A stretch of 64,000 bases of DNA. Source: an uncultured delta proteobacterium (lineage in GTDB: Bacteria > Desulfobacterota > Binatia > UBA9968). A model generated the notes under the pieces. It did no database searches. It had not been told where the DNA came from and was given only the letters and a program-made list of their open reading frames with translations. A program made the position numbers and the translations under genes. Positions within the stretch are counted from its first letter, which is position 1; every line of letters begins with the position of its first letter. Below are positions 37,935 to 53,188 of the stretch, one piece after another. Where the stretch lies: NCBI GenBank assembly GCA_963755715.1, contig CAVWLW010000004.1, forward strand, positions 10,554 to 74,553, given 5' to 3'.

Positions 37935-38034
37935 GAGCGGACTATAGCAAAGCCTCGCTAGCAGAAAAAGCGCGGCGATTTATAGCAGCCTGAAACTCGA
38001 ATACTCGCCGAAAAATGATACCGTAACTCCTAGG

Positions 38035-38829
38035 ATGCGCCATTTGATTTGGAACGTAGATCCGGCAATTTTCATTCTCGGCCCAATCGAAATTCGCTGG
38101 TACGGGCTCTTCTTCGCGCTTGGATTTTTCATCGGTTTTCAAATCATGGCGCAGTTTTACCGCCGGGAACAGCGGGAACTCGAAAATTTATCCGAGCTCT
38201 GTCTGTATCTGATGCTCGGTACGATCATCGGCGCGAGGCTCGGTCACGTCTTGCTTTATCAGCCTGACTATTTCCTGTCGCACCCCTGGGAAATTCCCAT
38301 GATTTGGCAAGGCGGACTGGCGAGCCACGGCGGTTTCGCCGGTGTCCTGATCTCACTCTATCTCTATCTCAAAAAGCACCGCGACATGAGCTTCATCGAG
38401 CTTGCCGACCGTCTCGCGATACCTTGCCTGCTGGCGGCGGCGTTGATCCGCGTCGGTAATTTTTTTAATTCGGAGATTCTCGGCGTCCCATCAAACCTGC
38501 CATGGGCCGTCGTATTCGCCCGCGTTGACAACATTCCGCGACATCCGGCAATGCTCTACGAGGCGGCCGTGTACTTTGTCGTTTTTTGCGTGCTGTTCGT
38601 CGCCTATTGGAAGACCGCGATTATTCAATTTCCCGGCAGAGTCTTCGGCACGACCCTAGCGACCTGCTTTCTGGCCCGTTTCATGATTGAATTCGTCAAA
38701 GAAAATCAGGTGCCATTCGAGAACCGTATGCCTTTGAACATGGGGCAACTGATGAGCATTCCTTTTATCCTGACCGGGGTGTATCTCATCTATGCTTCAC
38801 GAAGAATGCCGCGAGCAGCTGAACGATGA
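38035..38829 (+). CDS. lgt: Prolipoprotein diacylglyceryl transferase
   Basis: IRWYG, GARLGH, GGLASHGG, RVGNFFNSE, RHPAMLYE, RFMIEF. Confidence 0.93.
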   Translation: MRHLIWNVDPAIFILGPIEIRWYGLFFALGFFIGFQIMAQFYRREQRELENLSELCLYLMLGTIIGARLGHVLLYQPDYFLSHPWEIPMIWQGGLASHGGFAGVLISLYLYLKKHRDMSFIELADRLAIPCLLAAALIRVGNFFNSEILGVPSNLPWAVVFARVDNIPRHPAMLYEAAVYFVVFCVLFVAYWKTAIIQFPGRVFGTTLATCFLARFMIEFVKENQVPFENRMPLNMGQLMSIPFILTGVYLIYASRRMPRAAER

Positions 38830-38904
38830 GATTCCGCCAAGACGCCGAAGGTTAAAATATTTCGGCGACGAATCGAGGTTTGGGTAGCTAAACAGGAAAC
38901 TTTG

Positions 38905-39528
38905 TTAAATGCCTTGTTCGGTTCCTGAATGGCCGCACGAGACGTTTTCCGGCCAGAGGAGCTCTTTGTACGAGCCGATGGCAGCCTGCAACGTCCCAAT
39001 GATAATCACCGCGGCGATCAGCAGGGCAAACAACGAATCAAAAACAACATTTCCCGAAACAAAGATCAAGATTCCCGCTGCCACCGGAATAAGCGAAACC
39101 AAAGTGTCGCCCAGGTTGTGAACATAGGCGAGACGAATCGCGGCGTCCTCTGTACTCGACTCACGAAGCACTCGAGCAACGCCCCAGTTGGCCAATGCAC
39201 CGATTAAACCTGCAACAATCGGGACCATGCCCGGCACTTGCACCGGCGATGCCAGACGCTCGACGACGCGCCAGACAAGAAATGCGCAAATGGCCAGCAG
39301 TCCGATCGAGTTGAACAGGTTAGCGTAGCGTAAAAGTTTACCGGAAAGACCCGCTCTTAGGCTGTAAGCCAACACCAAAAGCACAAGTGCGACCTCGTCG
39401 GAAAGATTGTGGACACCGTCCATGATCAGGCTGAAGCTGTTAGAGCCAATCCCCGCAGCGATCTCTACGACTAGGACGGCTGTGTTGAGCTGCAACGCAC
39501 GGACAAGGGGAGGACGACGATGCGACAT
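38905..39528 (-). CDS. Short CDF metal efflux protein (TM domain only)
   Basis: DGVHNLSD and HNLGD (HD-HD site); 207 aa with no C-terminal dimerisation domain. Confidence 0.8.
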   Translation of the reverse strand: MSHRRPPLVRALQLNTAVLVVEIAAGIGSNSFSLIMDGVHNLSDEVALVLLVLAYSLRAGLSGKLLRYANLFNSIGLLAICAFLVWRVVERLASPVQVPGMVPIVAGLIGALANWGVARVLRESSTEDAAIRLAYVHNLGDTLVSLIPVAAGILIFVSGNVVFDSLFALLIAAVIIIGTLQAAIGSYKELLWPENVSCGHSGTEQGI

Positions 39529-39571
39529 GTAAATCTTTCCTATGAGTCTTGTTCGATTTTAAATTTTTTGC

Positions 39572-42278
39572 TTACTTAGGCTGCGGCCCCAAGACGACCT
39601 GCGCCAAATCGTCGACCTTCAGCCATTTCGCAAACGCCGCTTGGATATCCGCGGCTGTGAACGCCGCGTAGCGTTTGGCCGCGGTGATGGGCTCGTCCAG
39701 CGGTAGATCGCGCGTCGAGCGATCGAGTAAGCCGCCGGCAATGCCCTGGGTGCTCGATTCACTGAGCGGTATGGCGCGCAACAGCAAAATTTTCGCTTGA
39801 TCGAGCTCGGCCGCCGTAACTGGTTTGGTTTGCATGATGCGCAAATTGCGCTCGATGAGCGACCTCGCTTTGGCCACGTTCGGCGGATCGCAGGCATAGG
39901 ACACGGCAAACACGGAACGGGTCTTGCCGGATTGTAAGTGGGCGTCAATAGAATATACGAGACCGCTTTTTTCCCGTAGATCCTGATAGAGCCGGCTGGC
40001 GTAAAAGCCGCCGGACAAAACCTGCAGGCCGACCTGAAGCGCGTAGTAGTCGTCGTCTTGACGCTTGAGCTCGAAGGTCTGGCCAAGTCTGACCTCATCT
40101 TGAACACGGCTTCGATCCGGGACGACGGTGACGCTTCGCCTTATTGCGCGGCACCGGCGGCAAGTCCGTTTCAGGTTTCGGACCCGTGGCCTGCCACGAA
40201 GCAAAATATTTTTCGATAACGGCGCGCGCATGCTCCGGTGTCACTTTGCCGATGACGACGATGGTGGTCAGGTCGGGCCTGAACGCTTTCTCATGATAGC
40301 TACGCACGTCTTCGAGCGTGAGCGCTCCGATTGTATCGGGCGTCGCCTCACGCAGAGTCGGATCCTTCTCGGGATAAATGGCTTTTAGAAAGGTGCGTCC
40401 TGAGCGGTAAACCGGACTTTGCAGTTGACCCGCCACCGCTTGAGCGGTGCGTTGCTGCACGGCTTTGAAGGCCGCTTCCGGCAGCGCGGGATGCAATAAG
40501 TTATCCGCAAGCAACTCCACGCCGCGCGCAAAACCGTCCGGCAGGACCTCGAGGGAAAAGCTGGTTCCCGCCTGCGCGTTGGCGCCGATCTCGTCGAGGG
40601 CTTCCTGGAAAGCGATGCGATCGAGCTTCGTCGAGCCGTAAGCGAACAGATCGTTGAGAATCTGGTCGGCTCCCTCTTTACCGGCCGGCACCTGGAGCTC
40701 AGCGCGATTTTTTACCCGGCCGTACACGCCGACGGTGTCGCTGATGGTTTCCGGTTGAATGATCAGACGCAATCCGTTGGGCAGCACGGTAACGCTTGGG
40801 TTGACGGTGGACGTCGGCACGGCCAATGGCGAAAGCGCTTTTTTCGCCCAAGCCGGCAGCGGCACTGCTTTCGTCTGCTTCGGCGCAAAAGATTCGCCGC
40901 CGGAGCGCGGCCCTTCGGAGGCCACGGCCTCGCCCGATTCGTGTGGCGTCATAATCACCGTAACCGCGCTGTCGTTGATGAGGTATTTTTTCGCCACCCG
41001 ATTCACATCGGCGACCGTGACCTTTTTGATCGCTTCGATGTCGTCGTCGATAGAAGTGCGTCCCTGGACGCTCAACGCTTGCGACCATTCAGCGGCCAAT
41101 CCGGCAATCGAGTTTCGGCGAAATTCCGCTTCCGCCACCTCGCGGCGCTTGGTCGCTTCGACTAAATCGGCGCTAACGCCTTTGTCGACATAGCCGGCGA
41201 TGATGGCTTTCATTTGGGTAACCAGGGCGGCGCTGTCTTGGCCGCGAGGGAATGCTGCGTTCGCGTAGCCGAATCCGGCCATGGGCAATGCCGTGCCGTC
41301 AAAACCGCCGGATAGAGCTTTGCCTTCGGCGGCGAGAGCGTAAAGTTCGCCGCGGCGGCTGTCGAGAGCATCGGCCAGCACCACACCGGCGGCATAATCG
41401 GGATCGTTGAATCCCGGCAATCGATAAGCCACCGCAACCAAACCGTAGGGCAGATCCGAATCGACCTCGATGGTCGCAGGTTTTAGCGGCTGCAGCGCGA
41501 TTTTTGGCCGCGCCGGCACAGTGCGGGCCGGAATCGATTCAAACAACTGCTTGACCGTTGCCAGCGCGGCGTCGGGATTGACGTCGCCGACGATCACTAA
41601 GATCGCATTGTTCGGCGCATACCACTTGCGGTGAAAATCCTTGAGCATCGCCCCGGTGGTTTTTTGAAACGACGGCCGAGTGCCCAGCGCGTCGTGTTCG
41701 TAGGGCGTACCGGCAAACATTTGCGCCAGCAAACGCGAGTAAAACAAATACTGTGGGTTGGAATAATCCTGCGCCACCTCCTGCTCGATGGCGCCCCGCT
41801 CTTGGCGCCACAGCGCGTCGGTGGCGAGGACGTCGCGCATGCGCACCGCCTCGATGCGCAGCGCGGTTTCGAGATCGCCGGTTGGCACGGTGAAAAAATA
41901 TTGCGTGACGATTTGTTGGGTGTTTGCATTGAAATTGCCGCCCATGGCCGCAATCAGACTGGAAAGCTGTGCGGACGAAAGTCCGGGGCTGCCGCGAAAC
42001 ATCATATGCTCCAACGCGTGGGCCATGCCGGGAAAGCCGTTAGGAGCTTCGTTGGAACCGACTAAGTAGTTGATCTGCGTCGTCACCACGGGCGCGAGAG
42101 AGTTGCGTACGATGACGACACGCAAGCCGTTTTTCAGCGTCGCGCGGGTGATTTCCGATTCGGTGGCCGCTTGGGCGCCGACAGTTGCACCGCCTACGAC
42201 AACGCTCACAATGACCCACGCCGCCATCCACGCGAAAACCCTTCTCTGTCCAATTTGTTTCAAATCGTGCGCCTCCAT
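39572..42278 (-). CDS. Secreted M16 (pitrilysin-family) zinc peptidase, frameshifted at about 40135
   Basis: Signal peptide, LKNGLRV, HALEHMMFRG, second half LPNGL..., SRLYQDLREKSGLVY. Confidence 0.88.
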
Positions 42279-42297
42279 AAGTCGAAATGAATTTCCT

Positions 42298-43055
42298 CTA
42301 GTCTTCCAGCATAACTAATACAAACATCAATCCAACACCCACTCCAATGGCGAGCATCTGCACAACTGATTTGCCAAGGGTTGACTCCTTGTTCAACTCC
42401 GGCACTAAGTCGGAACCGGCGATATATATGAAGCCGCCAGCGGCGAGCGGCAACATTATGCTGGAAAACTCGGCGACTCTGGAGCCAATTGAGAGCGACA
42501 TGACGGTGCCCAGAATCGCAAACAAAGCTGATACAAAATTGAAGAACAGCGCCTTCTTCTTCGTAAAGCCGGCATAGAGCAAGACAAAAAAATTGCCCAG
42601 CTCATGTGGAATTTCGTGAAAAACCACAGCGAGGGTCGTCGCAATGCCGATGTGAAGACTGACATCATAAGAGGCGCCGATTATAACGCCGTCGATAAAA
42701 TTGTGAGCCCCATCCGCCAATAAATTCATGTAACCCACAGGATGTATAGGGTGATCGGATTCCAGCACATGTTGATGTCTCCAGAGCAGAAGTTTCTCCA
42801 GAACAAAAAAGGCAAAGATGCCCGCCAAAACCAAAACGGAGGCTTGTAGCTTATTGCCGAATCTTTCAAAGGACTCCGGCAAAAGGTGAATGAAAGCGTC
42901 GCCGAACAAGCCGCCGACGGCCAGACTGACCATGAAAAATATGATGCGCTTTAGCTTCTCCTCGGCGACTGAGATGAACGCGAGGCCGATGAGCGAGAGC
43001 AGGCTTACCAAAATGACGCTGGCGAGGCTATAAGTCCAAACCGCAGACGTGACAT
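42298..43055 (-). CDS. ZIP family metal transporter (frameshift just after ATG 43055)
   Basis: DAFIHLLPE, DGAHNFIDG, HEIPHELG, AAGGFIYIAGSDLVPE. Confidence 0.9.
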
Positions 43056-43062
43056 CCTCTTT

Positions 43063-44515
43063 TCATCCCGCGAACAGATCCTGCACGATTGCTTTTATTG
43101 CATCCGTAGATGCCTGACCGAGATTCGTCGCGCTGGGCGTAGGAATGGCGCGTTGCACGCGGCGTTCCCACACGATCGCGCCGTCATCAATGCGCACGAG
43201 CTTGAAATCCACCAGAGCGCGCACGAACTTTTGCGTCTCGCCTTCCCAGCGCCAGATCTCAGTTACGAAAACCATACCCGAGAGTTTTCCCTCGCGAGCG
43301 ATGCGTGTCGCTCCTGCGCTGTCGGCGGGAAATGCCGGAAAGCGCGCATCTTTATCCTCGGGAAGAGAAATCTGAAAGCCTTTTTGCCCGAGTTCAGTTT
43401 GCAGGTTCTGGCGCAGCAGATCCATCACGCTCTGTCGATAGTCTTCAGGCAATACCTTGCCAGCCATCTCTGCTAGCGAACGAAGCGGATTGTTCGATGG
43501 CAAGAGCAGCGGCAGCGCCGTGCTGTTTTTTACCTTAGCGAGCCAAAGCTGTTCGGCGTGAATCGCTTTGGCCTCGGGAACCGGCGGCGCCGCGGTTTTG
43601 ACGCTGCAAGCACTTAGCGATAGAGCAACACCAGATCAACGCAAGCAGCGCTGGACGCATTCTCTTCGAGATGCGGCTCAGCCCGTAAGCCAAAAAGATC
43701 AGGCAGCATCCGAGAGCCACGTCCGTCGGTCCTAAAGGGAGATCCAACCGGACTGAGCTATAGAAACCCAAAAAGGCCATGACCAATCCTAACGCTGAAG
43801 AAACTACGAGGAAAGAACTCATCCGGCTAACCAACGGTTTTGCGGCTAGCGCCGGTAGCACCAAAAAGCCGAAAATCAGCAGCGGTCCCGCCATAATCAC
43901 ACCGAAGGCGATGATCAAGCCGGCGAGAAGATAGAGCAAGATGTCCCAAACCACCTGGCGACCTTTCAGCAAAAATGCCAAGTCTCTGTCGAAAGACGTC
44001 AAGAGAAATTCTCGGCGGAAGAGAAGCATAGACACCAGAACCATCCCAAACACCGCGACCAAAAGTCTTAGTTCGGCTTTCGACAGCGCGATCACTTCGC
44101 CCTTTAGTAGATTGAGAACTTCGATCTGACCGGCAGGATTAAAAACCATGAACAAGATCGTCAAGGCGCCGGCGAAAGCATAAGCGGCCGCAAGGCGGCC
44201 CTCCGCTAAGCCTTTGCCGCGCTGTTCCAAATAGCCGAGCAGTCCCATGCCGAGAAAAGTAAAAGCAAGTGATCCGACCATTGCGACGCCTCGTTCGCTC
44301 TGTCCCATTTGCGGCAAGAGTCCGGCCTGCTGCATCCAGAAAGTAAAAGCGACGCCTGCCGCGGCGATTTCCGGGAGTGTCAAACCGAGAAATACCGTGC
44401 GCCTAAGAACGAGGAAAGACCCGACGAGCGGACAAACCAAACCCATGATCATTGTGCCGACTAGCGCGGGGAAAAGGAGATATGAGGGATTGACGATTTC
44501 AAACAACATGCTCAT
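43063..44515 (-). CDS. Metal ABC permease (ZnuB/MntB type) apparently fused to a periplasmic DUF799-like domain; frameshift at about 43625
   Basis: G.FLVLRR.VF, SFD, GPLLIFGFLVLPA. The alternate frame continues LSACSVKTAAPP...SNNPLRSLAE... to 43063. Confidence 0.75.
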
Positions 44516-45240
44516 AGGTGAAGACGTGCCTTTCTTTCGTCCAACCAGATCCGGCCTTTATCAATGCGCATGATACTGTCGGCCACACGTTGCACCATCT
44601 CAAGGTCGTGGCTGGAAAAAAATACTGCCAGACCCTTTTCGCGGGTAAGCTTGGATTAGTAGATCGGCGATGCTTCGCCGGGACTCTTCATCGACGCCGG
44701 ATAGCGGCTCGTCTAAAACCATGATCTTCGGGTTCACCATCAATGCACGGGCAATCAGCACCGTTGTTTTTGCCCGCCGGAAAGGGCAAAAAAGATTTCG
44801 CCGCAATCTGCTGCAATACCAATCTGCTGCACAATTTGCTTTGGCTTTGCTCCTTTTCGCCGCCGGGCAGAAATTTAAACGGATGGACGCGGCCGTAAGC
44901 GCCCATCTCCACGATCTCCGAGGCGCTCAGAGGAAATTGCGGGTCGAGCGTCGCGCTTTGCGGCACGTAACCAAAGTTCGCCAGCGGGCAACCGCGCGAC
45001 AGAGGACACCGTCCGACGGCGCCAAAAGACCCAGAATCGTCCTGAACAGCGTTGTCTTGCCGGAGCCGTTCGGTCCGGCCAGGCCGACGAGCTCCCGGCA
45101 TAGATCTTGACGTTGACGTCATGCAGCACCGGCGCTGAATCGTAGCCGAGGCTGGCATTTTCGAGAGCAACCAGAGCGGCAAGCTTGGTGATCGACTTCT
45201 CCGCCCCGGCACTCTCGCGTGCATCGAATATCCATCTCAA
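44512..45240 (-). CDS. Metal ABC ATPase (ZnuC type), several frameshifts
   Basis: [30 protein letters not shown]...[10 protein letters not shown] spread across frames; stop overlaps the permease start. Confidence 0.8.
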
Positions 45241-45249
45241 GGTTGGCTT

Positions 45250-46186
45250 TCATAGAATTAGACTCACCGCCTGAACCAAGCTACGAACCGTATAGTCGAT
45301 CCATTTGATGTAGGTGTCGGTTTCCGGCTGACCCCCGCCACCGCTGTACAGGCGCAAGCTTTGATCCCGGTTTCGCTGGCGATCTGCTTGGGCAATCGTG
45401 GATTCTGCGCGCCATAAATTAACAACTGCGCTTTTTCTTGCTTGATCTGCTGGGTCAGCTCGACAATATGATTCGGCGTCGGTTCGACGCCGGGCTTTAT
45501 TTCGACGCTGCCGATCCGCTTCATGCCATATCGATCGGCAAGATAGACCCACTCCGGATGGTACTCGACATATTTGACGCCGCGCAACGGCGCCGCCATT
45601 TTGTCCCAACGTCCGATCCAGGTGTCCAATTCAGCGAGATACGCTTTCAGATTTTTTTCCAACGTCGGCTGATGTTGAGGAAAATTCACGAGAGAGACCG
45701 GCGGCGATATTCTGCAGCGACGATTTCGCTCTAACCGGATCTAAAAGATAATGCGGATTGCCCTTGGGATGAAGATCACCTTCCGCGCGGTCGACACGCG
45801 TAGGCGCATCGAGCACGGTGATTCCAACGGAGCAATCGATATAACCCGGCCGCCCAAAAAATTTTAGGGTTGTTGGCGACCTCCAAGAGCGCCGGTATCC
45901 AGGCGTGCTCATCGTCTAGACCGATCAGGATCAGCACGTCGGCCCGGTTCAACCGGGGTACAAAGCTCGGTTTCATCGGCACACCATGAGGATCTTCGAC
46001 CCCAGTCGCCAGAGTATCCACACTCACCAGCTCTTTCCCGACCTGCTTGGCGATATCCGCCAAAGCCGGCCACGTCGCGACGACACGGATCTGCTGCGCG
46101 AAAATTACGCCCGTTTCAAGAGAAAGAAATACAAGAGTTAGAAGAATCGTTTTCCAGCTTCTACAACTGAACAATTTCATCTTCAT
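45250..46186 (-). CDS. Metal ABC solute-binding protein (TroA/ZnuA family), several frameshifts
   Basis: Signal peptide, EDPH, GDLHPKGNPHYLLDP, YH..W.Y, EIKPGVEPTPNH; AAGGAG RBS. Confidence 0.85.
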
Positions 46187-46209
46187 AAATGAACTCCTTC
46201 GCAAACTCC

Positions 46210-47457
46210 TTAACGACCAAGAAATCCGTGGGTGTGGGCGCCGATAACTGTCGTCCATTGCAGAAAGATTTGATTGCCGTTCTCGGCTTTGGACGCGCCG
46301 CGAAAATTGTTGTTCAAGTAATAGTATTCAAGGCGCAGTCGGTTAAATTCGCTGAGATTCCAGGTGAGATATGGCGAGTAGCTCATGGTCCGTTGCCCGG
46401 GGCATCAACGATCGGAGCGTAGTCGACTTGGAATCCCGTCGACCAATTCTTGTTGAGCTTCAGATCGGCGTAAGTGTAGCCACCATATGATTTACTGCGG
46501 TTGGCGTGTCATCAGTTGGAAAACGTTGATTGTTAAAATAGAACTCACTCCCAAAATCACGCCCTGGTAAACCGCACTGTTAAGCGGTTGATAGCGATAG
46601 GTCAAATCAATACCGTTAAGAACTCGATTGCCGCCGCCGCTATCGCCGGCAAGCGCACCGAAGGCGTATAGGCCATGGTCGTGCCCAGCTCGACGCTGTG
46701 GTTATCGGTAAGATCGAAGTAGGTGCTCAGCCTGCCGAGGTATGTAAATTGGCTCCACGAGCGCGATTTGCATTGCTGACTGGTCATTGTCCTCGCCGAT
46801 CTTGTTATACCCCCCTAATGTCGCGCGCAAGAAAAACGGTGTCGGAAACAAATAATTGACTTCCACTCCGTCCGCCTGCGTTTCGCCACCAATCATCCGT
46901 TGGACGGATAGTGGCTCATTTACGAAAGGCAACTCGTGCTCGTGAACTTTGGGAAACCGCCCAAAATCGGCCAGAAACCGACCTGCCTTGACCGTCAAGT
47001 TGTAAGGAAGAGAACTTGTGATTGCGGCGGCTTCGTCGATCTCTACGCCATCCTTTGTGCCGTTGATAAAACTATACATTCTTGCAAACGGGTCCACGGA
47101 AGCTGCAATTCCCAGCTCTGCGCTGCGGAAATCAAAATTGCCTCCGGCTTTGCCAAGATTTTGCACATTGGCATCGAGCACGAGTCCCATGGACGGATTC
47201 AGCGCCGTCGGCGCACTTTGAACCGCCTGGACTGATTTCTCCACTTCTCCGATTCGCGCCGAGCTGGAAGATTTTTCCTTTTCCAATTGGTCAATCCTTT
47301 CCAAAGCTTTTTGCATCTGCTGCTCCATGCCCTTGACCGTGGCCCGCAGAGATTCCAACTCCGAACTTTGCGCCAGGCCAGCCGTTGGAACAAAAAATAT
47401 TAAACCCCATAGGGTAAATGCCGCGCTTCGCCGCGCCGATGCTGATAGAGATACCAT
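46210..47457 (-). CDS. Outer-membrane beta-barrel/porin-like protein of metal-ABC operons, several frameshifts
   Basis: Signal peptide, coiled coil, AELGIAASVDPF, KAGRF..FG...HEH; C-terminus FLQWTTVIGAHTHGFLGR* at 46210; AGGGAGG RBS. Confidence 0.7.
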
Positions 47458-47567
47458 GTCGAGACCTCCCTCCAAGCCAAACCAGCCGCCCTCTTATTAA
47501 AAGAACCGCGACGATAGAAGGCAGACGATGTAGTTATGCTGTGATAATTCCGATTTCGAACCGGGAA

Positions 47568-47887
47568 CTACAGGGAGGTCAAAGAAGGCGGTCCTCGAAC
47601 GTGCTGCTGTGCCGACTCCTCTTCCAGCCAAACAGCAACAGGAAGATCGGCGACTTGAGAGATGCAAAGTTGTGGGACTATGGTTAAGGGACTCGCAGTT
47701 GGAGCCAATTGAGCGCGGGTGCCCTGAAGACAACTACAGTCCTTAGTAACTTGCGATACGATCGAAAAATGAAAATGGAGAGGAAGGAAAAAACAAACAC
47801 AAGAGCCAGCGCGCTGATAACCTGCCGGCTCCCGAGCGTTTTTCGCATTCCCGGAAGATGCATGGCATCGAACCTAAACAATGTCAT
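47568..47887 (-). CDS. RGPP-type leader/arrest peptide (DUF2946/CruR-like), hidden by a 1-bp deletion in A6 at 47788-47793
   Basis: Adding one T gives ...ALVFVFFLPLHFHFSIVSQVTKDCSCLQGTRAQ...QHVRGPPSLTSL* (106 aa), a paralog of 50076-50369. Confidence 0.78.
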
Positions 47888-48011
47888 CCCTGATGTCAAC
47901 GAACCGCACGCCCTCGAAAAAACCTCCGACGATCGGACACCGTAACCGCGGGATTAGATCGGTCAAAGCAGTCACAGATAAGCTGATTCAGTGACCGATT
48001 GTTGTGACCAA

Positions 48012-48584
48012 TCAATGAAAAATCTCCCGCATGACCGTCTCGGCTACGATAACATTAGCTTGGCCCGTTAATACGACGCCATAAACTGGGACCGGGCGGG
48101 AGGGACGGTGTACCTGCCACAGTACCCCGCCGGTTTTCGGATCCACCATCACCGCGTCCAGCGCCACGATTACGCCGTCGGCTTTCATGCCGCGACTGTC
48201 CGGCGTCGGCTCCCAGCGCCGCACTTCGATGTAGAGGGCCATCGCGTCAAGGTTGGCCTCGCGCAGAATCTGCGCTGCCATCTCTGGGCTAGTGGGCACA
48301 CGATCCTTGGTTGCCACTTTCACCGCACTCGGACTGAGGACTTCGAATCCTTTCTCCGCAAGTCTTATGCGAGCTTGCTGGGCGAGAACATCTCCCACAG
48401 TCATGTTTTGCAAAACAGGGGGACCGCTGTCTGCGCCGGTGCGAGCCTCGACGGCGCCAGCTTGGTAGGTTGGAAGCACCGCGATTCGATGAAGGTTCTG
48501 CGGCAAAGGAGTAACCACTGCTGGCGCGCATGCGACTGCTCCGAATAATCCGGCGATCAGTACGATTTTGAGCATGAACATCAT
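48012..48584 (-). CDS. DUF799/GNA1162-like lipoprotein
   Basis: AVAC lipobox, RIAVLP, L.EKGFEV, DPKTG.VLW. Confidence 0.7.
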   Translation of the reverse strand: MMFMLKIVLIAGLFGAVACAPAVVTPLPQNLHRIAVLPTYQAGAVEARTGADSGPPVLQNMTVGDVLAQQARIRLAEKGFEVLSPSAVKVATKDRVPTSPEMAAQILREANLDAMALYIEVRRWEPTPDSRGMKADGVIVALDAVMVDPKTGGVLWQVHRPSRPVPVYGVVLTGQANVIVAETVMREIFH

Positions 48585-48621
48585 GCTGATTCGAAAGTCG
48601 TGTGTTTGTGACACGAACAAA

Positions 48622-48922
48622 TCATTCAGACGGAGGGTCTTGCGGCTTGCTGTAATCCCTTCGCCTAGCCCGCCAGTCATCGTTTATTCCATTGAAAATT
48701 CCATCCGGAAAGCAGTGACACATCCCTGATCCGCCAAAGAACTTTTTATTCGCCACCTCGCACTCTTCCAGAGAGCTGTACCACTCGACCGCACGCGATT
48801 CCGTTTCCTTCATGTCTGTTCCCAACGGATGAATATGACATGAAGTCAGCCGCCCAAACGGCGTTAAAGGACCACGAGAGGCCAAGCCCGGCGAAGGTAA
48901 ACAATCTGAATCCGAACATCAT
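48622..48922 (-). CDS. Small secreted Cys/His protein (probable frameshift at about 48840)
   Basis: ATG abuts the NlpC stop (TGAATG); signal-like MMFGFRLF...VWAADF, then CHIHP...EEC...CHCFPD in the shifted frame. Confidence 0.5.
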
Positions 48923-49405
48923 TCAGCCTTCCTCCGAGTCCACAATCCGGCGTGCGCCCAGAAAATGTTTGACGTACCACGGCTGATTCAGATCCGTGAT
49001 GATGACGTATCCGGCTTTTTTCTCGGCGTGGACAAACCGGTTGTTGCCGATATAAAGGCCGACGTGATCCGGCGTTACGCCGTTAGAAGAAAAAAATAAC
49101 AGGTCACCTGTTCGCAGGTTCTCGACCGCGATGTCTTGCCCGGAGTGAAATTGTTCGCGGGAAGTCCGTGGCAGCTCTATGTTTAACTTAGCAAAAAGCG
49201 CTTTAACCAAACCGGAGCAATCCATCCCGCTGCGCTCCGACATCCCTCCCCACCGGTAGGGCAATCCGAGAAAATGCCGCGCCGCGCTCGCTAATTTGTC
49301 ACGAAGCGGTTGCCGAACAGGAGTCCATTCGTCGGCAAAGTTTGTTCCCTTCGTGGCGAGCAGTAAACTCAATAGAAGCAATAAGATGATCATTTGTTTT
49401 TCCAT
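48923..49405 (-). CDS. NlpC/P60 (C40) peptidase
   Basis: Signal peptide, GLPYRWGG, DCSG, LPRTS..Q, GDLLFF, HVGLYIG, FVHA. Confidence 0.92.
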   Translation of the reverse strand: MEKQMIILLLLLSLLLATKGTNFADEWTPVRQPLRDKLASAARHFLGLPYRWGGMSERSGMDCSGLVKALFAKLNIELPRTSREQFHSGQDIAVENLRTGDLLFFSSNGVTPDHVGLYIGNNRFVHAEKKAGYVIITDLNQPWYVKHFLGARRIVDSEEG

Positions 49406-49470
49406 TGCAAATCTCCAAAGTTTGAAAGACTACTTTTTTTCTCGCGGATGAATCCGCGGCGGCAACCTCA

Positions 49471-49953
49471 TCAACACGCTGAAGAGCCCTGTGATGACGA
49501 CGAAGACCGGCGCCACTTGGCACGCTTGCTACCGAAAGTGGACTCCGGCTCATGCGAGCCGCACTCCCCGCAAAGTCGGCACAAGCGCCGATTTAGAAAA
49601 TGGCCCGCGGCCAAAACCAGCGTTCCGGAGATAACGATCGGGGTCTCGTATCGTTCGTCAACCCAGAAGTGTCCGGAGCTGATCAACGCCACGGCCGAGA
49701 CAAGAAAAACAAAACCGTGAAAACGTCGGTGATAGCGGAATCCCCAAGTAAAACTGCTGACCGCTAGAATGACTGAAGTCGCGACAAAGATTTTCTCGAC
49801 ACCTTCACCCAGAAGAAAACCCAAACCTAAAAGCGGCAACACTCCGACGAGCAGCGGAAAAACCGAACACTGAATGGCGCAGGCGATCGAGACCGTAGTA
49901 CCTAGCGAATCGATCCAAGAGGATGGCGCCACGGCATAATCATTTTTAGCCAT
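49471..49953 (-). CDS. MerC-domain membrane protein
   Basis: GGAGG RBS and MAKND start; D.LG...S.ACAIQC...P, 4 TM, AAGH..N, C-terminal CRLCGECGSHE. Confidence 0.8.
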   Translation of the reverse strand: MAKNDYAVAPSSWIDSLGTTVSIACAIQCSVFPLLVGVLPLLGLGFLLGEGVEKIFVATSVILAVSSFTWGFRYHRRFHGFVFLVSAVALISSGHFWVDERYETPIVISGTLVLAAGHFLNRRLCRLCGECGSHEPESTFGSKRAKWRRSSSSSQGSSAC

Positions 49954-50075
49954 GAAATTCCTCCAATCGGCGCAAAGCCGACGAATGCAGAACGGGCCGC
50001 GGGAGCCATGCGATCGGAGCGCACATGGCTCCGTTCTCTCAAAAATTAACTGAAAAGGGAGAAATGAAGATCGGG

Positions 50076-50369
50076 CTACGAAACTGGCGGCGCACGAATA
50101 GATAGGAAGCTGACGACAACTTGTGAAACAAGCTGTGACTGCAAAGACTGGTACAGAACAAACTGTAACGGGACTGCCCACTGGACCAAGACGGGAACGA
50201 CTCCCGTTTGTGCGCGGGTGCCGTGGTGGCAGGCGCATTCGTGATTGATATTCGCTGCGGCCGTGGCGGCGTGAAAATGAAGCGGCAGGAAGAAAACCGC
50301 AAGAACCAGAAAAATTGTGATCGAGCGCCGTCGAAGCGCGAGTTCGGACAGGAATCGCTCGATGATCAT
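50076..50369 (-). CDS. RAPP-type leader/arrest peptide (DUF2946/CruR-like)
   Basis: 97 aa: basic N-region, TM, LPLHFH, HECACHH, GTRAQ, ends IRAPPVS*. Confidence 0.82.
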   Translation of the reverse strand: MIIERFLSELALRRRSITIFLVLAVFFLPLHFHAATAAANINHECACHHGTRAQTGVVPVLVQWAVPLQFVLYQSLQSQLVSQVVVSFLSIRAPPVS

Positions 50370-50374
50370 ACGCC

Positions 50375-50403
50375 CTGATAACCTGGCGCTTGGCGCTTGT
50401 CAA
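50375..50403 (-). promoter_or_regulatory. Candidate sigma70 promoter giving a leaderless leader-peptide mRNA
   Basis: TTGACA-17 bp-TATCAG, then 5 nt to the ATG with no SD; the -10 element is imperfect. Confidence 0.45.
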
Positions 50404-50561
50404 AGCATTGGACGGCAATTTTTTTGCCACGCGACGAATTCTACAGGTCTTTCGCGGTTGGTGAATGCTACGTCAACGGAGTAAGATCAGGGCGCTTTCG
50501 CTGATCTAAGATCGGAAAGTAACAATCGAATGCCGCGCAAGCGGGCTGGCCATGATGACTG

Positions 50562-50590
50562 TGTAAACCTCCTGGGCATTGGCGCGTCTA
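50562..50590 (+). promoter_or_regulatory. ECF sigma promoter
   Basis: TGTAAAC-16 bp-CGTCTA (AAC/CGT pattern) upstream of the operon containing the ECF sigma. Confidence 0.65.
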
Positions 50591-50637
50591 AGGCCATTAG
50601 ACCGCATCAAAACTTCAAGAAACAGGGGGATTTAGGT

Positions 50638-51078
50638 ATGATCAACGGAAAATCGCTTTGCGCCACTGGGGTGCTCGCCGCGGCGCTGGCAATAGCCGCT
50701 TCGCCGGTGCTAGCCGCCGAAGGGACGATCACCGGGCCAGAGAGGCATGAGTTACGCCATGACCGGCGCGAGATTCGGCGTGATCGAAGAGAAATTCATG
50801 GCGACCGCAGAGAGATTCGTGGCGATCGGAACGAGCTCCAAGGTGATCGCCGCGAATTAGTCCGAGACCGCCACGAACTGCGCCACGATATTAAGAGCGG
50901 CGCCGGCAAAGCAGAGATCGCTCAGGACGTGAAGGAAGTCCGTCAAGACCGCCGAGAGATCGTCGGCGACAAGGTGGATCTTGCCCGAGACGCGAAGGAT
51001 ATTCACGGCGATCGCCGGGAGCTGCGCCAAGACCGCGGAGAATTTCGCCGCGACGCAAAGGACGCGCTGAGGAATTAA
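50638..51078 (+). CDS. Secreted heptad-repeat (xDRREI/LR) protein
   Basis: Signal peptide (...VLA-AE) followed by many 7-aa repeats; 21-bp periodic DNA. Confidence 0.8.
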
Positions 51079-51189
51079 CGGGGAGCGAGCGTGACTCCGA
51101 ATGAACCGGCGGTATCGACCCTCGCCGCCCGCGCCCCTTTCTCCATCTTTTCCGGTGCGCCGGCAATATCGAAAGCTAGGAGTCGCTTG

Positions 51190-51753
51190 GTGAATCCCGG
51201 AGACGAGGAGTTAGTGGCGCGGGCCCAGCAGGGCGACCGCCGTGCGTTCGAGGAACTCGTGGAACGCCATAAACAGAAGGCCTATTACATCGCCTTTGAT
51301 TTTTCGCGCGACCGCGAAGACGCCAAGGACCTGTCGCAAGAGGCGTTTTTGAAAGCTTTTACGAATCTCAAAAAATTTGACGGGCGATCGAGCTTTTATA
51401 CCTGGTTTTACCGCATCCTCGTTAACCTCTGTCTGGATTACAAGCGCCGCCAAAAACGGGCTCCGACGGATACCTTTGACGAGACCCTGGAGAGCCACAT
51501 GGAACCTTCCCACGAACCTAAAAAACCGCGATCGCCCGATCAACAAGTTTTCGCCGGGCAGATTTCGCGCCGGGTTGGCGAAGCGCTCGAAGCCCTGCCG
51601 GCCAGGCAGCGAACTGCGTTCATACTAAAAAATCATCAAGGGCTGTCGATCAAAGAAATCGCCGAGTTAATGGAGACCGCGGAAGGCACGGTCAAAGTGC
51701 ACCTGCACCGCGCGGTGACGGCGCTCAGACAGAGCCTGGCGGAATTCGCCTAG
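51190..51753 (+). CDS. ECF RNA polymerase sigma factor
   Basis: DAKDLSQEAFLKA, FYTWFYRILVNLCLD, region 4 SIKEIAE..GTVKVHLHRA; AGGAG before GTG 51190. Confidence 0.92.
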   Translation: MNPGDEELVARAQQGDRRAFEELVERHKQKAYYIAFDFSRDREDAKDLSQEAFLKAFTNLKKFDGRSSFYTWFYRILVNLCLDYKRRQKRAPTDTFDETLESHMEPSHEPKKPRSPDQQVFAGQISRRVGEALEALPARQRTAFILKNHQGLSIKEIAELMETAEGTVKVHLHRAVTALRQSLAEFA

Positions 51754-51756
51754 GAG

Positions 51757-52278
51757 GTGGATATGGCGAATCGCGATAGAACACCGAATCCTTGCAAAGA
51801 ATTGGAAGAAGATCTCGTGCTGCTCCATTACAGCGACCTCGCCGGCGCCGAACGCCATGCGCTGCAAGATCATTTGGTAAGCTGCGCCGGCTGCACCGGT
51901 TATTTAAAAGAGCTGGCGACGCTTTTACCACTGACGGTTAAAGCGGACGAACCGTCACAAACTTTTTGGCACGATTACAGCCGCGAACTGCGCCACAAGA
52001 TCGATGCGGTGAGCGAAAAGCAGTCTTGGCGCCAGCGGCTCAGCGGCTTTTTTCACCCTTGGTCCATTCCCGCCCTCGCCGGCGCCGCGGTCGTCATGTT
52101 GGCACTGACGTTGACCTTCGGCAAAGGAATCTGGCAGAGCAATGATCTGCCGAAAGACGATGCCGCCATGATCGAGGCGCTCCCGGTAGCGGAAAATTTG
52201 GAATTTTTCAAAGCGATGGACGTGCTCGATGACCTGGATCTTTTGGAGTCCATGGGCAACCAGGGCGACGCCGCCTAG
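51757..52278 (+). CDS. Zinc-binding (zf-HC2) membrane anti-sigma factor
   Basis: HLVSCAGC (HxxxCxxC), TM, C-terminal ENLEFFKAMD. Confidence 0.85.
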   Translation: MDMANRDRTPNPCKELEEDLVLLHYSDLAGAERHALQDHLVSCAGCTGYLKELATLLPLTVKADEPSQTFWHDYSRELRHKIDAVSEKQSWRQRLSGFFHPWSIPALAGAAVVMLALTLTFGKGIWQSNDLPKDDAAMIEALPVAENLEFFKAMDVLDDLDLLESMGNQGDAA

Positions 52279-52295
52279 ACTGACCCGAGGACACA

Positions 52296-52541
52296 ATGCG
52301 GTTCTGCGCATGGGTGTTGGCTCTCACCCTAGGCATCTCAGCGGTCGGTTTTGCCGCGACCAAGGACTCAGAGCCGCCCGATCGTGAGATGTTAAAGATG
52401 ATGGAGCTCCTGCGCGAAATGGAAATGATCAAACAAATAGACATGCTGCAGGATATGCAACGTCTGGAAAATAGCGATCCGGTAAAAGACTCAGCGGCGC
52501 AGAAATCCGCTCCCGGCAAGAAAAAGGAGACGCCGAAGTGA
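52296..52541 (+). CDS. Small secreted Met-rich protein
   Basis: Signal peptide; EMLKMMELLREMEMIKQIDML; overlaps the next gene. Confidence 0.7.
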   Translation: MRFCAWVLALTLGISAVGFAATKDSEPPDREMLKMMELLREMEMIKQIDMLQDMQRLENSDPVKDSAAQKSAPGKKKETPK

Positions 52542-53188
52542 GGTCACTGAAAACTGCCGCAAGCTTTCTTTGGCTTTTGGCTCTCCTCATCGTGCCTGCG
52601 GCCTGGGCCCAGCCCGCGCCGCGCACCGAGACGTTGGCGCAAAACGACAATGACACGTTGGAACGCTGGCAGCGCATGACGCCCGAGCAGAAACAGGAGC
52701 TGCGTGACCGATTCCAGCGCTGGAAAAATCTCCCACCCAGTGAAAAGGAAGAACTGCAGCGGAAGTTTGACAATTGGCGCCGCTTGCCGCCGGAAGAGAA
52801 AGCCACGGCGCGGCGCAACTTCGAGCGTTGGCAAAAGTTACCGCCCGAACAGCGTGAGCGCCTGCAGGAACGCTGGCGCCAATGGCGCGAGCTGCCGCCG
52901 GAACGGCGCGAGGAGCTGCAGCGGCGATGGCAACGCATCGAGAATTTACCCCCCGAAAAGCGGGAGCAATTGCGGCAAAAGCTCCAAGAGTGGCAACGGC
53001 GCTCACCGGAAGAGAAGGCGCAGATACGGGAAAAGGCGCGGGAGCGCGTGGAACGACTATCCCCGGAAGAGAAACACGAGATAAGAGAAAAACTGCGGGA
53101 GATGAAGCAGCGCGGCACGATCGAAGAAAGAAAACAGTTTCGCGAACAGTTGCGCGAGAAGATGCAGCAGCGCAACGAAAAGGACTAG
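52538..53188 (+). CDS. DUF3106 repeat protein
   Basis: Signal peptide; 18-aa repeats W..LPPE.K/R..L... Confidence 0.85.
   Translation: MRSLKTAASFLWLLALLIVPAAWAQPAPRTETLAQNDNDTLERWQRMTPEQKQELRDRFQRWKNLPPSEKEELQRKFDNWRRLPPEEKATARRNFERWQKLPPEQRERLQERWRQWRELPPERREELQRRWQRIENLPPEKREQLRQKLQEWQRRSPEEKAQIREKARERVERLSPEEKHEIREKLREMKQRGTIEERKQFREQLREKMQQRNEKD

Follow-up and report, generated by a model that had tools for sequence, protein, structure and literature searches.

Putative arrest leader peptides with a His2/Cys2-type motif ahead of zinc-uptake operons in uncultured soil bacteria

Introduction

Can a peptide still attached to the ribosome report on zinc? The question is raised by a 64,000-nucleotide (nt) stretch of DNA from an uncultured delta proteobacterium (GenBank assembly GCA_963755715.1, contig CAVWLW010000004.1), referred to here as the window, in which two small open reading frames (ORFs) of the minus strand, leader 1 and leader 2, combine a hydrophobic N-terminus, histidine and cysteine motifs and a Pro-Pro motif close to the stop codon, and stand ahead of genes for metal transport. 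By their sequences and by analogy with CruR and CutF, both are probably Sec-targeted regulatory leader peptides (upstream ORFs) of about 98 residues that serve zinc-uptake operons. Metal-responsive arrest peptides have so far been demonstrated for copper only (CruR and CutF), and the principle would be extended to the most widely used structural metal by a family of like geometry that had a His2/Cys2-type motif and zinc importers behind it.

Two Paralogous Leaders in the Window

Leader 1 is an ORF of 97 residues (50076-50369, minus strand) laid out as a basic stretch, a hydrophobic helix running to VFFLPLHFH, the motif CAC, the sequence GTRAQ and the C-terminus IRAPPVS. The codons of H31 and H33 lie at 50279-50271, those of C45 and C47 at 50237-50229 and those of RAPP at 50096-50085, and a tail of two residues (VS) precedes the stop codon (50078-50076). 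Leader 2, about 2.5 kb downstream on the same strand (47568-47863), would have 98 residues if intact, with HxH encoded at 47777-47769, CxC at 47738-47730, RGPP at 47597-47586, a tail of five residues (SLTSL) and the stop codon at 47570-47568. As assembled it is split over two minus-strand frames, the N-terminal one reading MHLPGMRKTLGSRQVISALALVFVF and the other FLPLHFHFSIVSQVTKDCSCLQGTRAQ...QQHVRGPPSLTSL up to the stop.

A profile hidden Markov model (HMM) based on 18 database sequences homologous to leader 1 and run on the 203,845 six-frame ORFs of the 7.4-Mb genome matches leader 1 (E 3.9e-43) and leader 2 (E 5.5e-13) only, the next best match having an E value of 0.39. Sequence comparison thus confirms, beyond chance, that the two are paralogues in one conserved family. 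The first-pass annotation of this DNA had described the two ORFs as sharing VFFLPLHFH, CxC, GTRAQ and a terminal R[AG]PP, with 44 residues between the second cysteine and the arginine in both despite unrelated spacers, and as lying some 110-120 bp upstream of metal-related genes. These observations are borne out. The shared motifs are present in the translations; the second cysteine and the arginine are 44 residues apart in leader 1 and leader 2 alike (by hand count in leader 2); and BLASTP of leader 1 against intact leader 2 aligns residues 14-54 at 44% identity (E 2e-10) and leaves the spacer unaligned. The stop codon of leader 1 is 122 nt from the ATG of a MerC-like gene (49953) and that of leader 2 is 110 nt from the Shine-Dalgarno (SD)-preceded ATG of a porin-like gene (47457), or 92 nt from the TTG chosen by the ORF caller, and Pfam finds MerC (PF03203, 1.7e-22), ABC-3, ZIP, peptidase M16 and Cation_efflux among the genes behind them.

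The extent given for leader 2 in that annotation, 47568-47887, needs amending. The ATG at 47863, which yields 98 residues, is more likely the start, because the ATG at 47887 falls inside a promoter-like element (TTGACA-17-TAGGTT) and because the listed orthologues are mostly 98 residues long.

A Fixed Distance Over a Variable Spacer

To delimit the family, a 45-member profile was searched against 1.84 billion representatives. It recovers 147 clusters at E ≤ 1e-3 and 131 at E ≤ 1e-10, with no long weak tail. Matching public contigs are titled 'Candidatus Binatia', 'Deltaproteobacteria bacterium' or 'Syntrophobacter(aceae)' metagenome-assembled genomes, mostly from soil, and the stretch in the window is itself present in soil metagenomes of 12 studies, in which all sequencing runs are DNA. 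The family is present in 30 of 61 related genomes (26 of 36 in the family-level group to which the window belongs, three of five in a second and none of 19 in a third), and five of the 30 carriers have two or three copies. It was found in none of 300 other genomes across the phylum, a sample with one other genome of the carrier family-level group. The family is seen in one order of uncultured soil bacteria only. The genomes behind two loci, L005 and L015, are marked unpublished; these loci contribute at most one or two rows to some of the counts given here, and no claim depends on them.

Conservation in the family is concentrated in a few positions. Across the 18 homologues F26, F27, L28, H31, H33, C45, C47, I91, R92, A93, P94 and P95 are invariant, and across the 45-member alignment L28, H31, H33, C45, C47, R92, P94 and P95 remain so; LHxH, which closes the signal or anchor helix, CxC and R-[A/G]-P-P are essentially invariant in the family. 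CxC followed by R[AGS]PP can be parsed in 132 of the 147 representatives (RAPP in 105, RGPP in 23, RSPP in 4), and the other 15 are truncated, frame-shifted or variant (RDPP, LGPP; HCxVCH in P0179 and P0183). Searching with an HMM for a fixed distance between cysteine and RxPP, as had been proposed for the two peptides, recovers such a distance: the second cysteine and the arginine are 44 residues apart in 126 of the 132 (a script count of 124 plus hand counts of the mis-parsed P0155 and P0168), 45 in four, 42 in one and 47 in one. An earlier set of 49 sequences has exactly 44 in 44 of them. Over the last 36 positions of the spacer mean pairwise identity is 14.6%, and the constant length at this low identity indicates that the length of the spacer is constrained and its sequence is not. 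An exact ruler over a near-random spacer is an unusually clean constraint, directly testable by insertions and deletions. The flanking distances are looser: HxH and CxC are separated by 9-12 residues in the 132 representatives (10-13 in the 49-sequence set), and the tail after R[AGS]PP has 2-16 residues (1-16 in the 49-sequence set), most often five (73 representatives), then two (28), three (14) or four (9).

The N-terminus of the family is predicted, from hydropathy and charge alone, to be a Sec signal or an N-in anchor. The 14 residues before HxH have a mean Kyte-Doolittle hydropathy of 2.61, and the 12 residues preceding the hydrophobic stretch are net positive in 116 of 117 sequences. A second transmembrane helix in the spacer was considered and rejected, as a 19-residue window above a Kyte-Doolittle value of 1.6 occurs in only 19 of 124 representatives. 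Different histidine contents around CxC (HECACHH in leader 1, DCSCLQ in leader 2) had been taken as possibly giving two set-points. This idea is not supported, since P0002, the closest homologue of leader 1 (95% identical), has CACLHG, and the extra histidine of leader 1 is therefore specific to the strain. In the family at large the residue two after the second cysteine is histidine in 58 of 124 representatives and glutamine in 30 of 124.

Zinc-Uptake Genes Behind the Leaders

To survey the genes that follow, we considered 49 distinct leaders followed by 300 nt or more of sequence. A porin-like gene of about 430 residues, belonging to no Pfam family, is the next gene after the leader in 42 of the 49, and ZnuA comes next after it in 36 of the 42, with ZnuC and/or ZnuB behind where the sequence allows. 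Five of the other six run off the end of the locus, and one (L021_6076) precedes a fragment of the porin gene and then the operon of the next leader. Among the remaining leaders the first gene is MerC-like in three, DUF3299 in one (in the order DUF3299-ZrgA-ABC-FtsX) and NlpC/P60 in two, and nothing was recognised behind one. Altogether 46 of the 49 leaders directly precede a porin-like, MerC-like or DUF3299/ZrgA operon, at gaps of 65-178 nt across loci, and none of the 49 has a sec or yidC gene downstream. Intact orthologues give firm Pfam assignments: MerC 1.3e-22, DUF3299 4.2e-32, ZrgA 7.2e-39, ZnuA (PF01297) 6e-50, ABC-3 9.7e-32, and ABC_tran. The gene neighbourhood, with ZnuA/ABC-3, ZrgA, DUF3299, ZIP and cation diffusion facilitator (CDF) genes, supports zinc as the metal concerned. 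The first-pass annotation had left the ligand as perhaps Zn, Ni or Co; these neighbours narrow it to zinc.

The porin-like protein is a candidate for a zinc channel of the outer membrane that partners ZnuABC. An AlphaFold2 model of an orthologue (L021:15755-17050) has N-terminal helices, forming a coiled coil, and a barrel of about 16 strands (pLDDT 63.9), and Foldseek relates the model to OmpT, OprP, PorB and DcaP, with E values down to 2.9e-11 (OmpT).

In the window the minus strand reads, in order, leader 1, MerC-like, NlpC/P60, lipoprotein, leader 2, porin-like, ZnuA, ZnuC, ZnuB, ZIP, M16 and CDF. The MerC-like membrane protein is the first gene past leader 1 (49471-49953), and between the leaders follow an NlpC/P60 hydrolase (48923-49405; PF00877, 7.7e-30) and a GNA1162-like lipoprotein (48012-48680; PF05643, 0.0011, below its cut-off). 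Behind leader 2 lie the porin-like outer-membrane protein 'OMP430' (46210-47457, fragmented in the assembly and traced by tblastn against the intact orthologue of the relative G014), a ZnuA-like gene (45264-46258, fragmented), a ZnuC-like ATPase (about 44600-45240, fragmented), a ZnuB-like ABC-3 permease (43535-44515; ABC-3, 2.5e-34), ZIP (42298-43011), peptidase M16 (40095-42278 and 39572-40231) and CDF (Cation_efflux, 38905-39528). In G014 the genes MerC-DUF3299-ZrgA-ABC-FtsX are followed by the same NlpC/P60 and lipoprotein pair. The operon of leader 1 appears to be a remnant from which the Zrg-like genes have been lost, because here, unlike in G014, the MerC-like gene runs straight into NlpC/P60. 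One locus of that relative (L021, G014:C4:68000-87999) holds three leaders within 10 kb, which head a porin-gene fragment, a MerC-DUF3299-ZrgA-ABC-FtsX operon and a porin-like gene with ZnuABC, respectively.

Elsewhere in the genome that contains the window, a third small exported ORF (contig C75 of G000, 52607-53023, plus strand; also L077:1650-2027) ends in SRAPPLV before its stop. It has a His-rich stretch, two cysteines and no Pfam family, lies upstream of DUF4198, CopC, CopD and a CtaG-like gene, and is one of three candidates genome-wide that combine a hydrophobic N-terminus with R[AG]PP within 12 residues of the end. This ORF probably encodes an arrest leader of the copper type. The genome has two Fur-family genes only (G000 contigs, C54:177342-177686 and C68:7497-7832), both of which score best against PerR, Irr or Fur models, far below every cut-off; no match to a Zur model at E ≤ 1e-5 was found in this 93.6%-complete genome.

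Tail Codons Complementary to the Next Shine-Dalgarno Sequence

The codons after the arrest motif offer a second and independent experimental handle, as they are complementary to the SD sequence of the next gene in a way that is specific to each locus. In leader 2 a putative anti-SD element lies inside the tail codons (UGACCUCCCUGUAGUUC, 47565-47581, minus strand) and would pair with the SD region of the porin-like gene (UGGCUUGGAGGGAGGUCU, 47462-47479, minus strand), which stands before the ATG at 47457. The duplex has 14 bp at -21.2 kcal/mol and is also present in the minimum free energy (MFE) fold, and the leader 2 tail (-20.4 kcal/mol) pairs better than all 61 of 61 control windows of the same length from the leader body.

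We divided the loci into a long-tail class, with tails of 3-6 residues (36 loci including leader 2), and a short-tail class (nine loci including leader 1). The long-tail class has pyrimidine-rich tail codons (...CUCCCUN UAG), complementary to the next gene's SD, and the tail:SD duplex reaches -12 kcal/mol or lower in 28 of the 36 loci and -15 kcal/mol or lower in 21. Over all 46 scored loci the tail averages -12.1 kcal/mol as against -7.5 for control windows from the same leader, and it is better than every control window in 15 of the 46; the pairing often reaches into variable flanks. A tail paired with its own SD averages -14.93 kcal/mol, compared with -12.94 with the SDs of other loci, and in none of 10,000 permutations was the own-SD mean reached. 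Codon choice follows the same direction, with UCC or UCU for 37 of 50 serines in the tails versus 78 of 267 in the leader bodies, and CUC for 27 of 52 leucines versus 87 of 325. In the metagenome contig L083 a change of ACC to AUC in the tail, opposite an unchanged SD, turns a G-C pair into G-U.

With the third codon of RxPP in the P site, a ribosome shields about 15 nt of the sequence that follows, where the anti-SD element starts. Blocking the first 22 nt in the long-tail class raises the predicted unpaired fraction of the SD from 0.22 to 0.33, with a gain of more than 0.1 in 20 of 36 loci and a loss in one; the gain stays modest since another, intergenic CCCUCC-like element is likewise able to pair with the SD. 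For leader 1 the candidate anti-SD (AUUUCUCC, 50058-50065, minus strand) pairs with the SD of the MerC-like gene (GGAGGAAU, 49965-49958, minus strand) in both the MFE and the centroid structure.

The Frameshift in Leader 2

The frame of leader 2 switches at a run of six T (A6 at 47788-47793 on the plus strand), and the proposal that one added T would restore it is confirmed by DNA alignment. In place of the window's T6, metagenome contigs L080 (99% identical) and L091 have T7 and L083 has TCTTTTT, again seven bases, and the leader 2 ORF is intact in all three. At the protein level, a query with the C-terminal frame finds 21 clusters of intact proteins of 98-106 residues, and the best intact orthologue, P0019, matches the N-terminal frame at 100% identity and the C-terminal frame at 97%; leader 2 does, then, have intact orthologues. 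A programmed frameshift was rejected, the orthologues being in frame.

Within the same 520 nt the window is short of three further single bases, two of them in homopolymers, with a handful of substitutions; T-runs account for two of the four single-base gaps and an A-run for one. Across 43.4-50.5 kb, contigs of four runs from four studies differ from the window by many single-base indels, the tally being at least 35 differences over 7.1 kb (window 43400-50500), and it is on account of these single-base indels that the porin-like, ZnuA-like and ZnuC-like genes look shattered. The break in leader 2 is most likely an error of assembly or consensus and not a dead gene, because T7 is found in L080 and L091 and because there are several single-base gaps and very few substitutions.

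Genuine decay of leader 2 and the following Znu operon into pseudogenes in this strain would fit the splitting of the porin-like gene, ZnuA and ZnuC into several ORFs each, and several of the indels listed against the metagenome contigs do lie outside homopolymers. We nevertheless hold it improbable: contigs of 99% identity are intact, gaps mostly in T- and A-runs with few substitutions are typical of long-read consensus errors, znu genes are broken in other long-contig relatives as well (L027, L029, L038), and even a contig with no substitutions over 50076-50500 differs from the window by one gap. In metagenomes assembled from long reads, leaders of this kind will be overlooked or put in the wrong frame by gene callers; here a single missing T hid leader 2.

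Upstream Elements

A promoter-like element stands immediately before leader 2 on the minus strand (TTGACA at 47899-47894, 17 nt, TAGGTT at 47876-47871, 7 nt before the ATG) and is invariant in the alignment of metagenome-contig DNA. TTGACA-16/18-TAGGTT recurs in 20 of the 49 loci, ending 5-9 nt (mostly 6-7) before an ATG or GTG with no SD, and the start codon in these 20 loci is always 27-29 codons before [LF]HxH. This arrangement suggests translation of the leaders from mRNAs that are leaderless or nearly so. Leader 1 has, by eye, a weak promoter-like element (TTGACA at 50403-50398, 17 nt, TATCAG at 50380-50375, 5 nt, ATG; minus strand) that fails the strict TTGACA/TAGGTT pattern. A promoter scan, which finds no more sites than it does in shuffled sequence, marks TTCACC-16-TAGAAT at 50465-50438 instead.

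Just upstream of the leader 2 promoter lies a terminator-like hairpin with a U-run (47925-47942, minus strand), the run being T7 in L080 and T6 in the window; the scan gives six terminator-like sites versus 5.2 +/- 2.1 in shuffles, so this hairpin alone is not significant. No terminator-like site was found between either leader and its downstream gene in the scan of the window. A search of 38000-53000 against Rfam at E ≤ 1 gave a chance miRNA match (0.68) only, and no known riboswitch or leader RNA.

At about 50575-50615 the sequence TTAGACGCG ... GGAGGTTTAC recurs some 200-250 nt upstream of leaders in relatives, and the word GAGGTTTAC is found in 13 examined loci; it could be the binding site of a regulator or part of an RNA. 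Divergent from leader 1, 50530-51078 (plus strand) encodes a secreted protein of 182 residues with RREI(R/H)GDR-like repeats and no Pfam family, and ORFs at 51091-52278 (plus strand) resemble an extracytoplasmic function (ECF) sigma factor and an anti-sigma factor, judged by translation alone.

Proposed Mechanism and Alternatives

We propose that R[AG]PP stalls the ribosome once the third codon of the motif has reached the P site and the fourth the A site. The geometry would be that published for RAPP, in which Pro codons 3 and 4 occupy the P and A sites, for ApdA/ApdP and, by toeprint, for CruR (PMC12992588); in the same source RAPP and RGPP are the strongest arrest cores resistant to EF-P, and RSPP and RDPP are partly permissive. 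The arrested ribosome would cover the pyrimidine-rich tail codons, leaving the SD of the first uptake gene free and the operon translated. At that point CxC would be about 47 residues and HxH about 61 residues from the peptidyl-transferase centre, which would place both outside the exit tunnel; the metal site would lie at the outer face of the translocon if insertion is co-translational, and otherwise in the cytoplasm. Once zinc suffices, the two histidines and two cysteines would bind it, and compaction or pull would release the arrest, as has been proposed for copper and CruR. The ribosome would then terminate, the tail would pair with the SD and uptake would be switched off. The polarity, in which zinc releases the arrest, we infer from the uptake function of the downstream genes and from the analogy with CruR.

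As a bolder and tentative possibility, the family may be the first zinc-sensing nascent peptide, with a His2-Cys2 site (LHxH plus CxC) formed as the ribosome reaches R[AG]PP and placed beyond the tunnel or translocon by the 44-residue ruler, so that a pull by zinc releases the arrest and the tail re-masks the SD. The leaders might then do the work of Zur in this lineage, an idea prompted by the likeness of both Fur-family genes to PerR, Fur or Irr and not to Zur, and a single module might be re-tuned to other metals through its ligand residues, as suggested by the sister leader with a different motif that guards the CopCD genes.

Several points weigh against these readings. Arrest, metal binding and regulation are all inferred from sequence, and the polarity of the switch is deduced from uptake genes, while CutF works the opposite way. 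The sequences compared are relatives from one order, so the constancy of the spacer length is partly inheritance. The ZnuA and ABC-3 families include transporters of Mn and Fe, and the assignment to zinc rests on the names ZrgA, ZIP and CDF. That leader 2 is intact is most likely, and the call comes from metagenome contigs and not from raw reads of the source. On the side of the RNA, most of the SD is predicted to stay paired in the 'stalled' state too (unpaired fraction 0.33), and whole-region folds are no better than shuffles (z -0.81 for leader 1, -1.34 for leader 2). The short-tail class is without tail:SD pairing, its SD accessibility going from 0.21 to 0.14 over nine loci, and the candidate anti-SD of leader 1 lies 13-20 nt past the stop, about 10 nt beyond the edge of a RAPP-stalled ribosome; the read-out of leader 1 may be transcriptional.

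A transcriptional read-out could in fact apply to all the leaders, the stalled ribosome blocking Rho or a terminator hairpin in the intergenic region of 70-120 nt and the masking of the SD being irrelevant. CruR, the closest characterised analogue on an uptake operon, acts through Rho-dependent termination (PMC9426467), the short-tail class has no tail:SD pairing, and many relatives have a CCCUCC...GGGAGG hairpin and a U-rich stretch between leader and porin-like gene, one of which (in L051) was flagged as terminator-like. In most loci, however, the U-run is 4-8 nt away from the hairpin, neither intergenic region of the window holds a terminator-like site, and the locus-specific complementarity of tail and SD (0 of 10,000 permutations) would need another explanation, as would the codon bias of the tail; we regard this alternative as unlikely. 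It is rather less probable that the leaders arrest in response to something other than zinc, be it Cu, Ni, Co, Cd, Mn, the redox state of CxC, or Sec activity as for SecM and ApdA. Leaders of the DUF2946/CutF type fall into sequence-similarity network clusters with Cys, His or mixed motifs, tied to Cu or, for His-only clusters, to Ni/Co-type neighbours (PMC9973294), importers of Mn and Fe also belong to PF01297 and PF00950, a MerC-like gene stands behind leader 1, and RAPP leaders of sec genes respond to export and not to a ligand (PMC12992588). Against this, ZrgA (7.2e-39), DUF3299, ZIP and CDF point to zinc, sec and yidC genes are absent behind all 49 leaders, and copper has a separate RAPP-ending leader of its own before CopC/CopD in the same genome. 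Two histidines and two cysteines, moreover, are the classical composition of a tetrahedral zinc site.

The leaders might also be stable small proteins, membrane-anchored or periplasmic, that bind zinc as a chaperone or accessory to the porin-like protein or ZnuA, with R[AG]PP as a motif of the protein. They are conserved genes with a signal sequence and a metal-type motif, always beside transport genes, and CzcI-like relatives of DUF2946, thought to be metal-binding regulators, are without the Pro motif (PMC9973294); leader 1 has a faint match to CzcI (E 0.068). A folded protein, however, would not hold 36 residues at 14.6% identity and yet bar indels, and the codon bias of the tail and its complementarity to the SD would be left unexplained. 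RAPP and RGPP are also strongly avoided in bacterial proteomes, as motifs that stall ribosomes (PMC12992588), and the long frames of this genome (3.47 million residues) hold RGPP 25 and RAPP 60 times as against 106 for AAPP. We consider this the least credible of the alternatives, and very improbable. Taken together, regulatory leaders of zinc-uptake operons that act by arrest, as proposed above, remain the probable account of both ORFs.

Comparison With Known Arrest Peptides

In the SecM-secA system an exported leader arrests at RAGP and thereby opens an mRNA structure that masks the downstream SD; SecM senses the force of export and not a ligand, and its arrest needs extensive contacts in the tunnel. 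The leaders described here resemble it as predicted exported peptides whose arrest may open such a structure. They share with ApdA and ApdP the arrest core, its C-terminal position in a small localised protein and the slight sequence requirement of the N-terminal part (PMC12992588; PMC10951233). They differ from leaders of that type, which stand before sec or yidC genes, monitor export and have no metal motif, since none of the 49 leaders here precedes such a gene. A survey from 2025 places small exported proteins of the RAPP type before TonB, YcnI, PCuAC, PepSY and Dsb/thioredoxin genes (PMC12992588).

We found no zinc-linked arrest peptide in the literature searched; the supplementary cluster lists of PMC9973294 and PMC12992588 may hold some. 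The main text of PMC9973294 contains 'zinc' and 'ZnuA' 0 times and that of PMC12992588 contains 'zinc' 0 times, and the family appears to be described in no source that could be searched. Pfam and NCBIfam assign the leaders to no family, apart from the faint CzcI match of leader 1, which is set against a cut-off of 100 bits. The DUF2946 profile (PF11162, cut-off 23.7 bits) matches neither of the two leaders at E ≤ 1 and only one of 45 family members, at E 2.4, and it has no match anywhere in the genome. In the same phylum DUF2946 is found in five of 201 genomes at E ≤ 1e-3, with two above the cut-off and most with internal stops. Among the nearest named neighbours by language-model features are DUF2946-bearing clusters (score 0.94, 179 shared features; 12 of 30 named matches), a lead towards distant kinship and not a proof of it. 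The comparison with DUF2946 proposed in the first-pass annotation gives an architecture shared with CruR and CutF, no Pfam DUF2946 match, and a CxC in place of CXXC.

CutF of Rhodobacter capsulatus has a CxxxC motif and a Pro-rich end; in the presence of copper its stall lasts longer, and a stem-loop that covers the next SD melts as a result (PMC9973294; bioRxiv 10.1101/2025.02.05.636593). Similarly to the leaders proposed here, it is a Sec-exported nascent-chain sensor of metal, and in cutFOG the C-terminal Pro motif and the SD-hiding stem-loop cooperate in control. The motifs differ, CutF having CxxxC and an EF-P-dependent motif of the PPP type, compared with CAC...RAPPVS and CSC...RGPPSL in the two copies of the window. 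In CutF copper induces a detoxifying enzyme, whereas the importers here lead us to expect the opposite polarity.

The closest parallel is CruR of Bordetella pertussis (Bp2923, a DUF2946 protein), which has an export signal, CXXC and RAPP three residues from its end (PMC9426467). It heads a copper-uptake operon, and relief of the arrest by copper leads to Rho-dependent termination; its 45 intervening residues are kept within one or two across more than 2000 DUF2946 proteins, and five residues added to the spacer abolish control by copper (PMC9426467). By its sequences the family described here agrees with CruR in the position of RAPP, the spacing of about 45, the export signal and the place in the operon, and departs from it in the Pfam profile and in CXXC. 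Both are small exported upstream ORFs with a cysteine motif, a long spacer (45 residues in CruR, 44 here) and RAPP near the stop; both stand first in a metal-uptake operon with a long intergenic region behind; and the same uptake logic, in which metal relieves the arrest and shuts the genes off, is to be expected here by analogy. In place of CXXC the leaders have LHxH and CxC, with RGPP as a frequent alternative core, and in place of a TonB-dependent copper transporter they precede porin-like and ZnuABC or MerC/DUF3299/ZrgA/ABC genes, while the pairing of tail and SD suggests translational and not Rho-dependent control. With a ruler of 44 or 45 residues and different ligands, the two families would form a natural pair in which to ask how the binding of a metal reaches the peptidyl-transferase centre.

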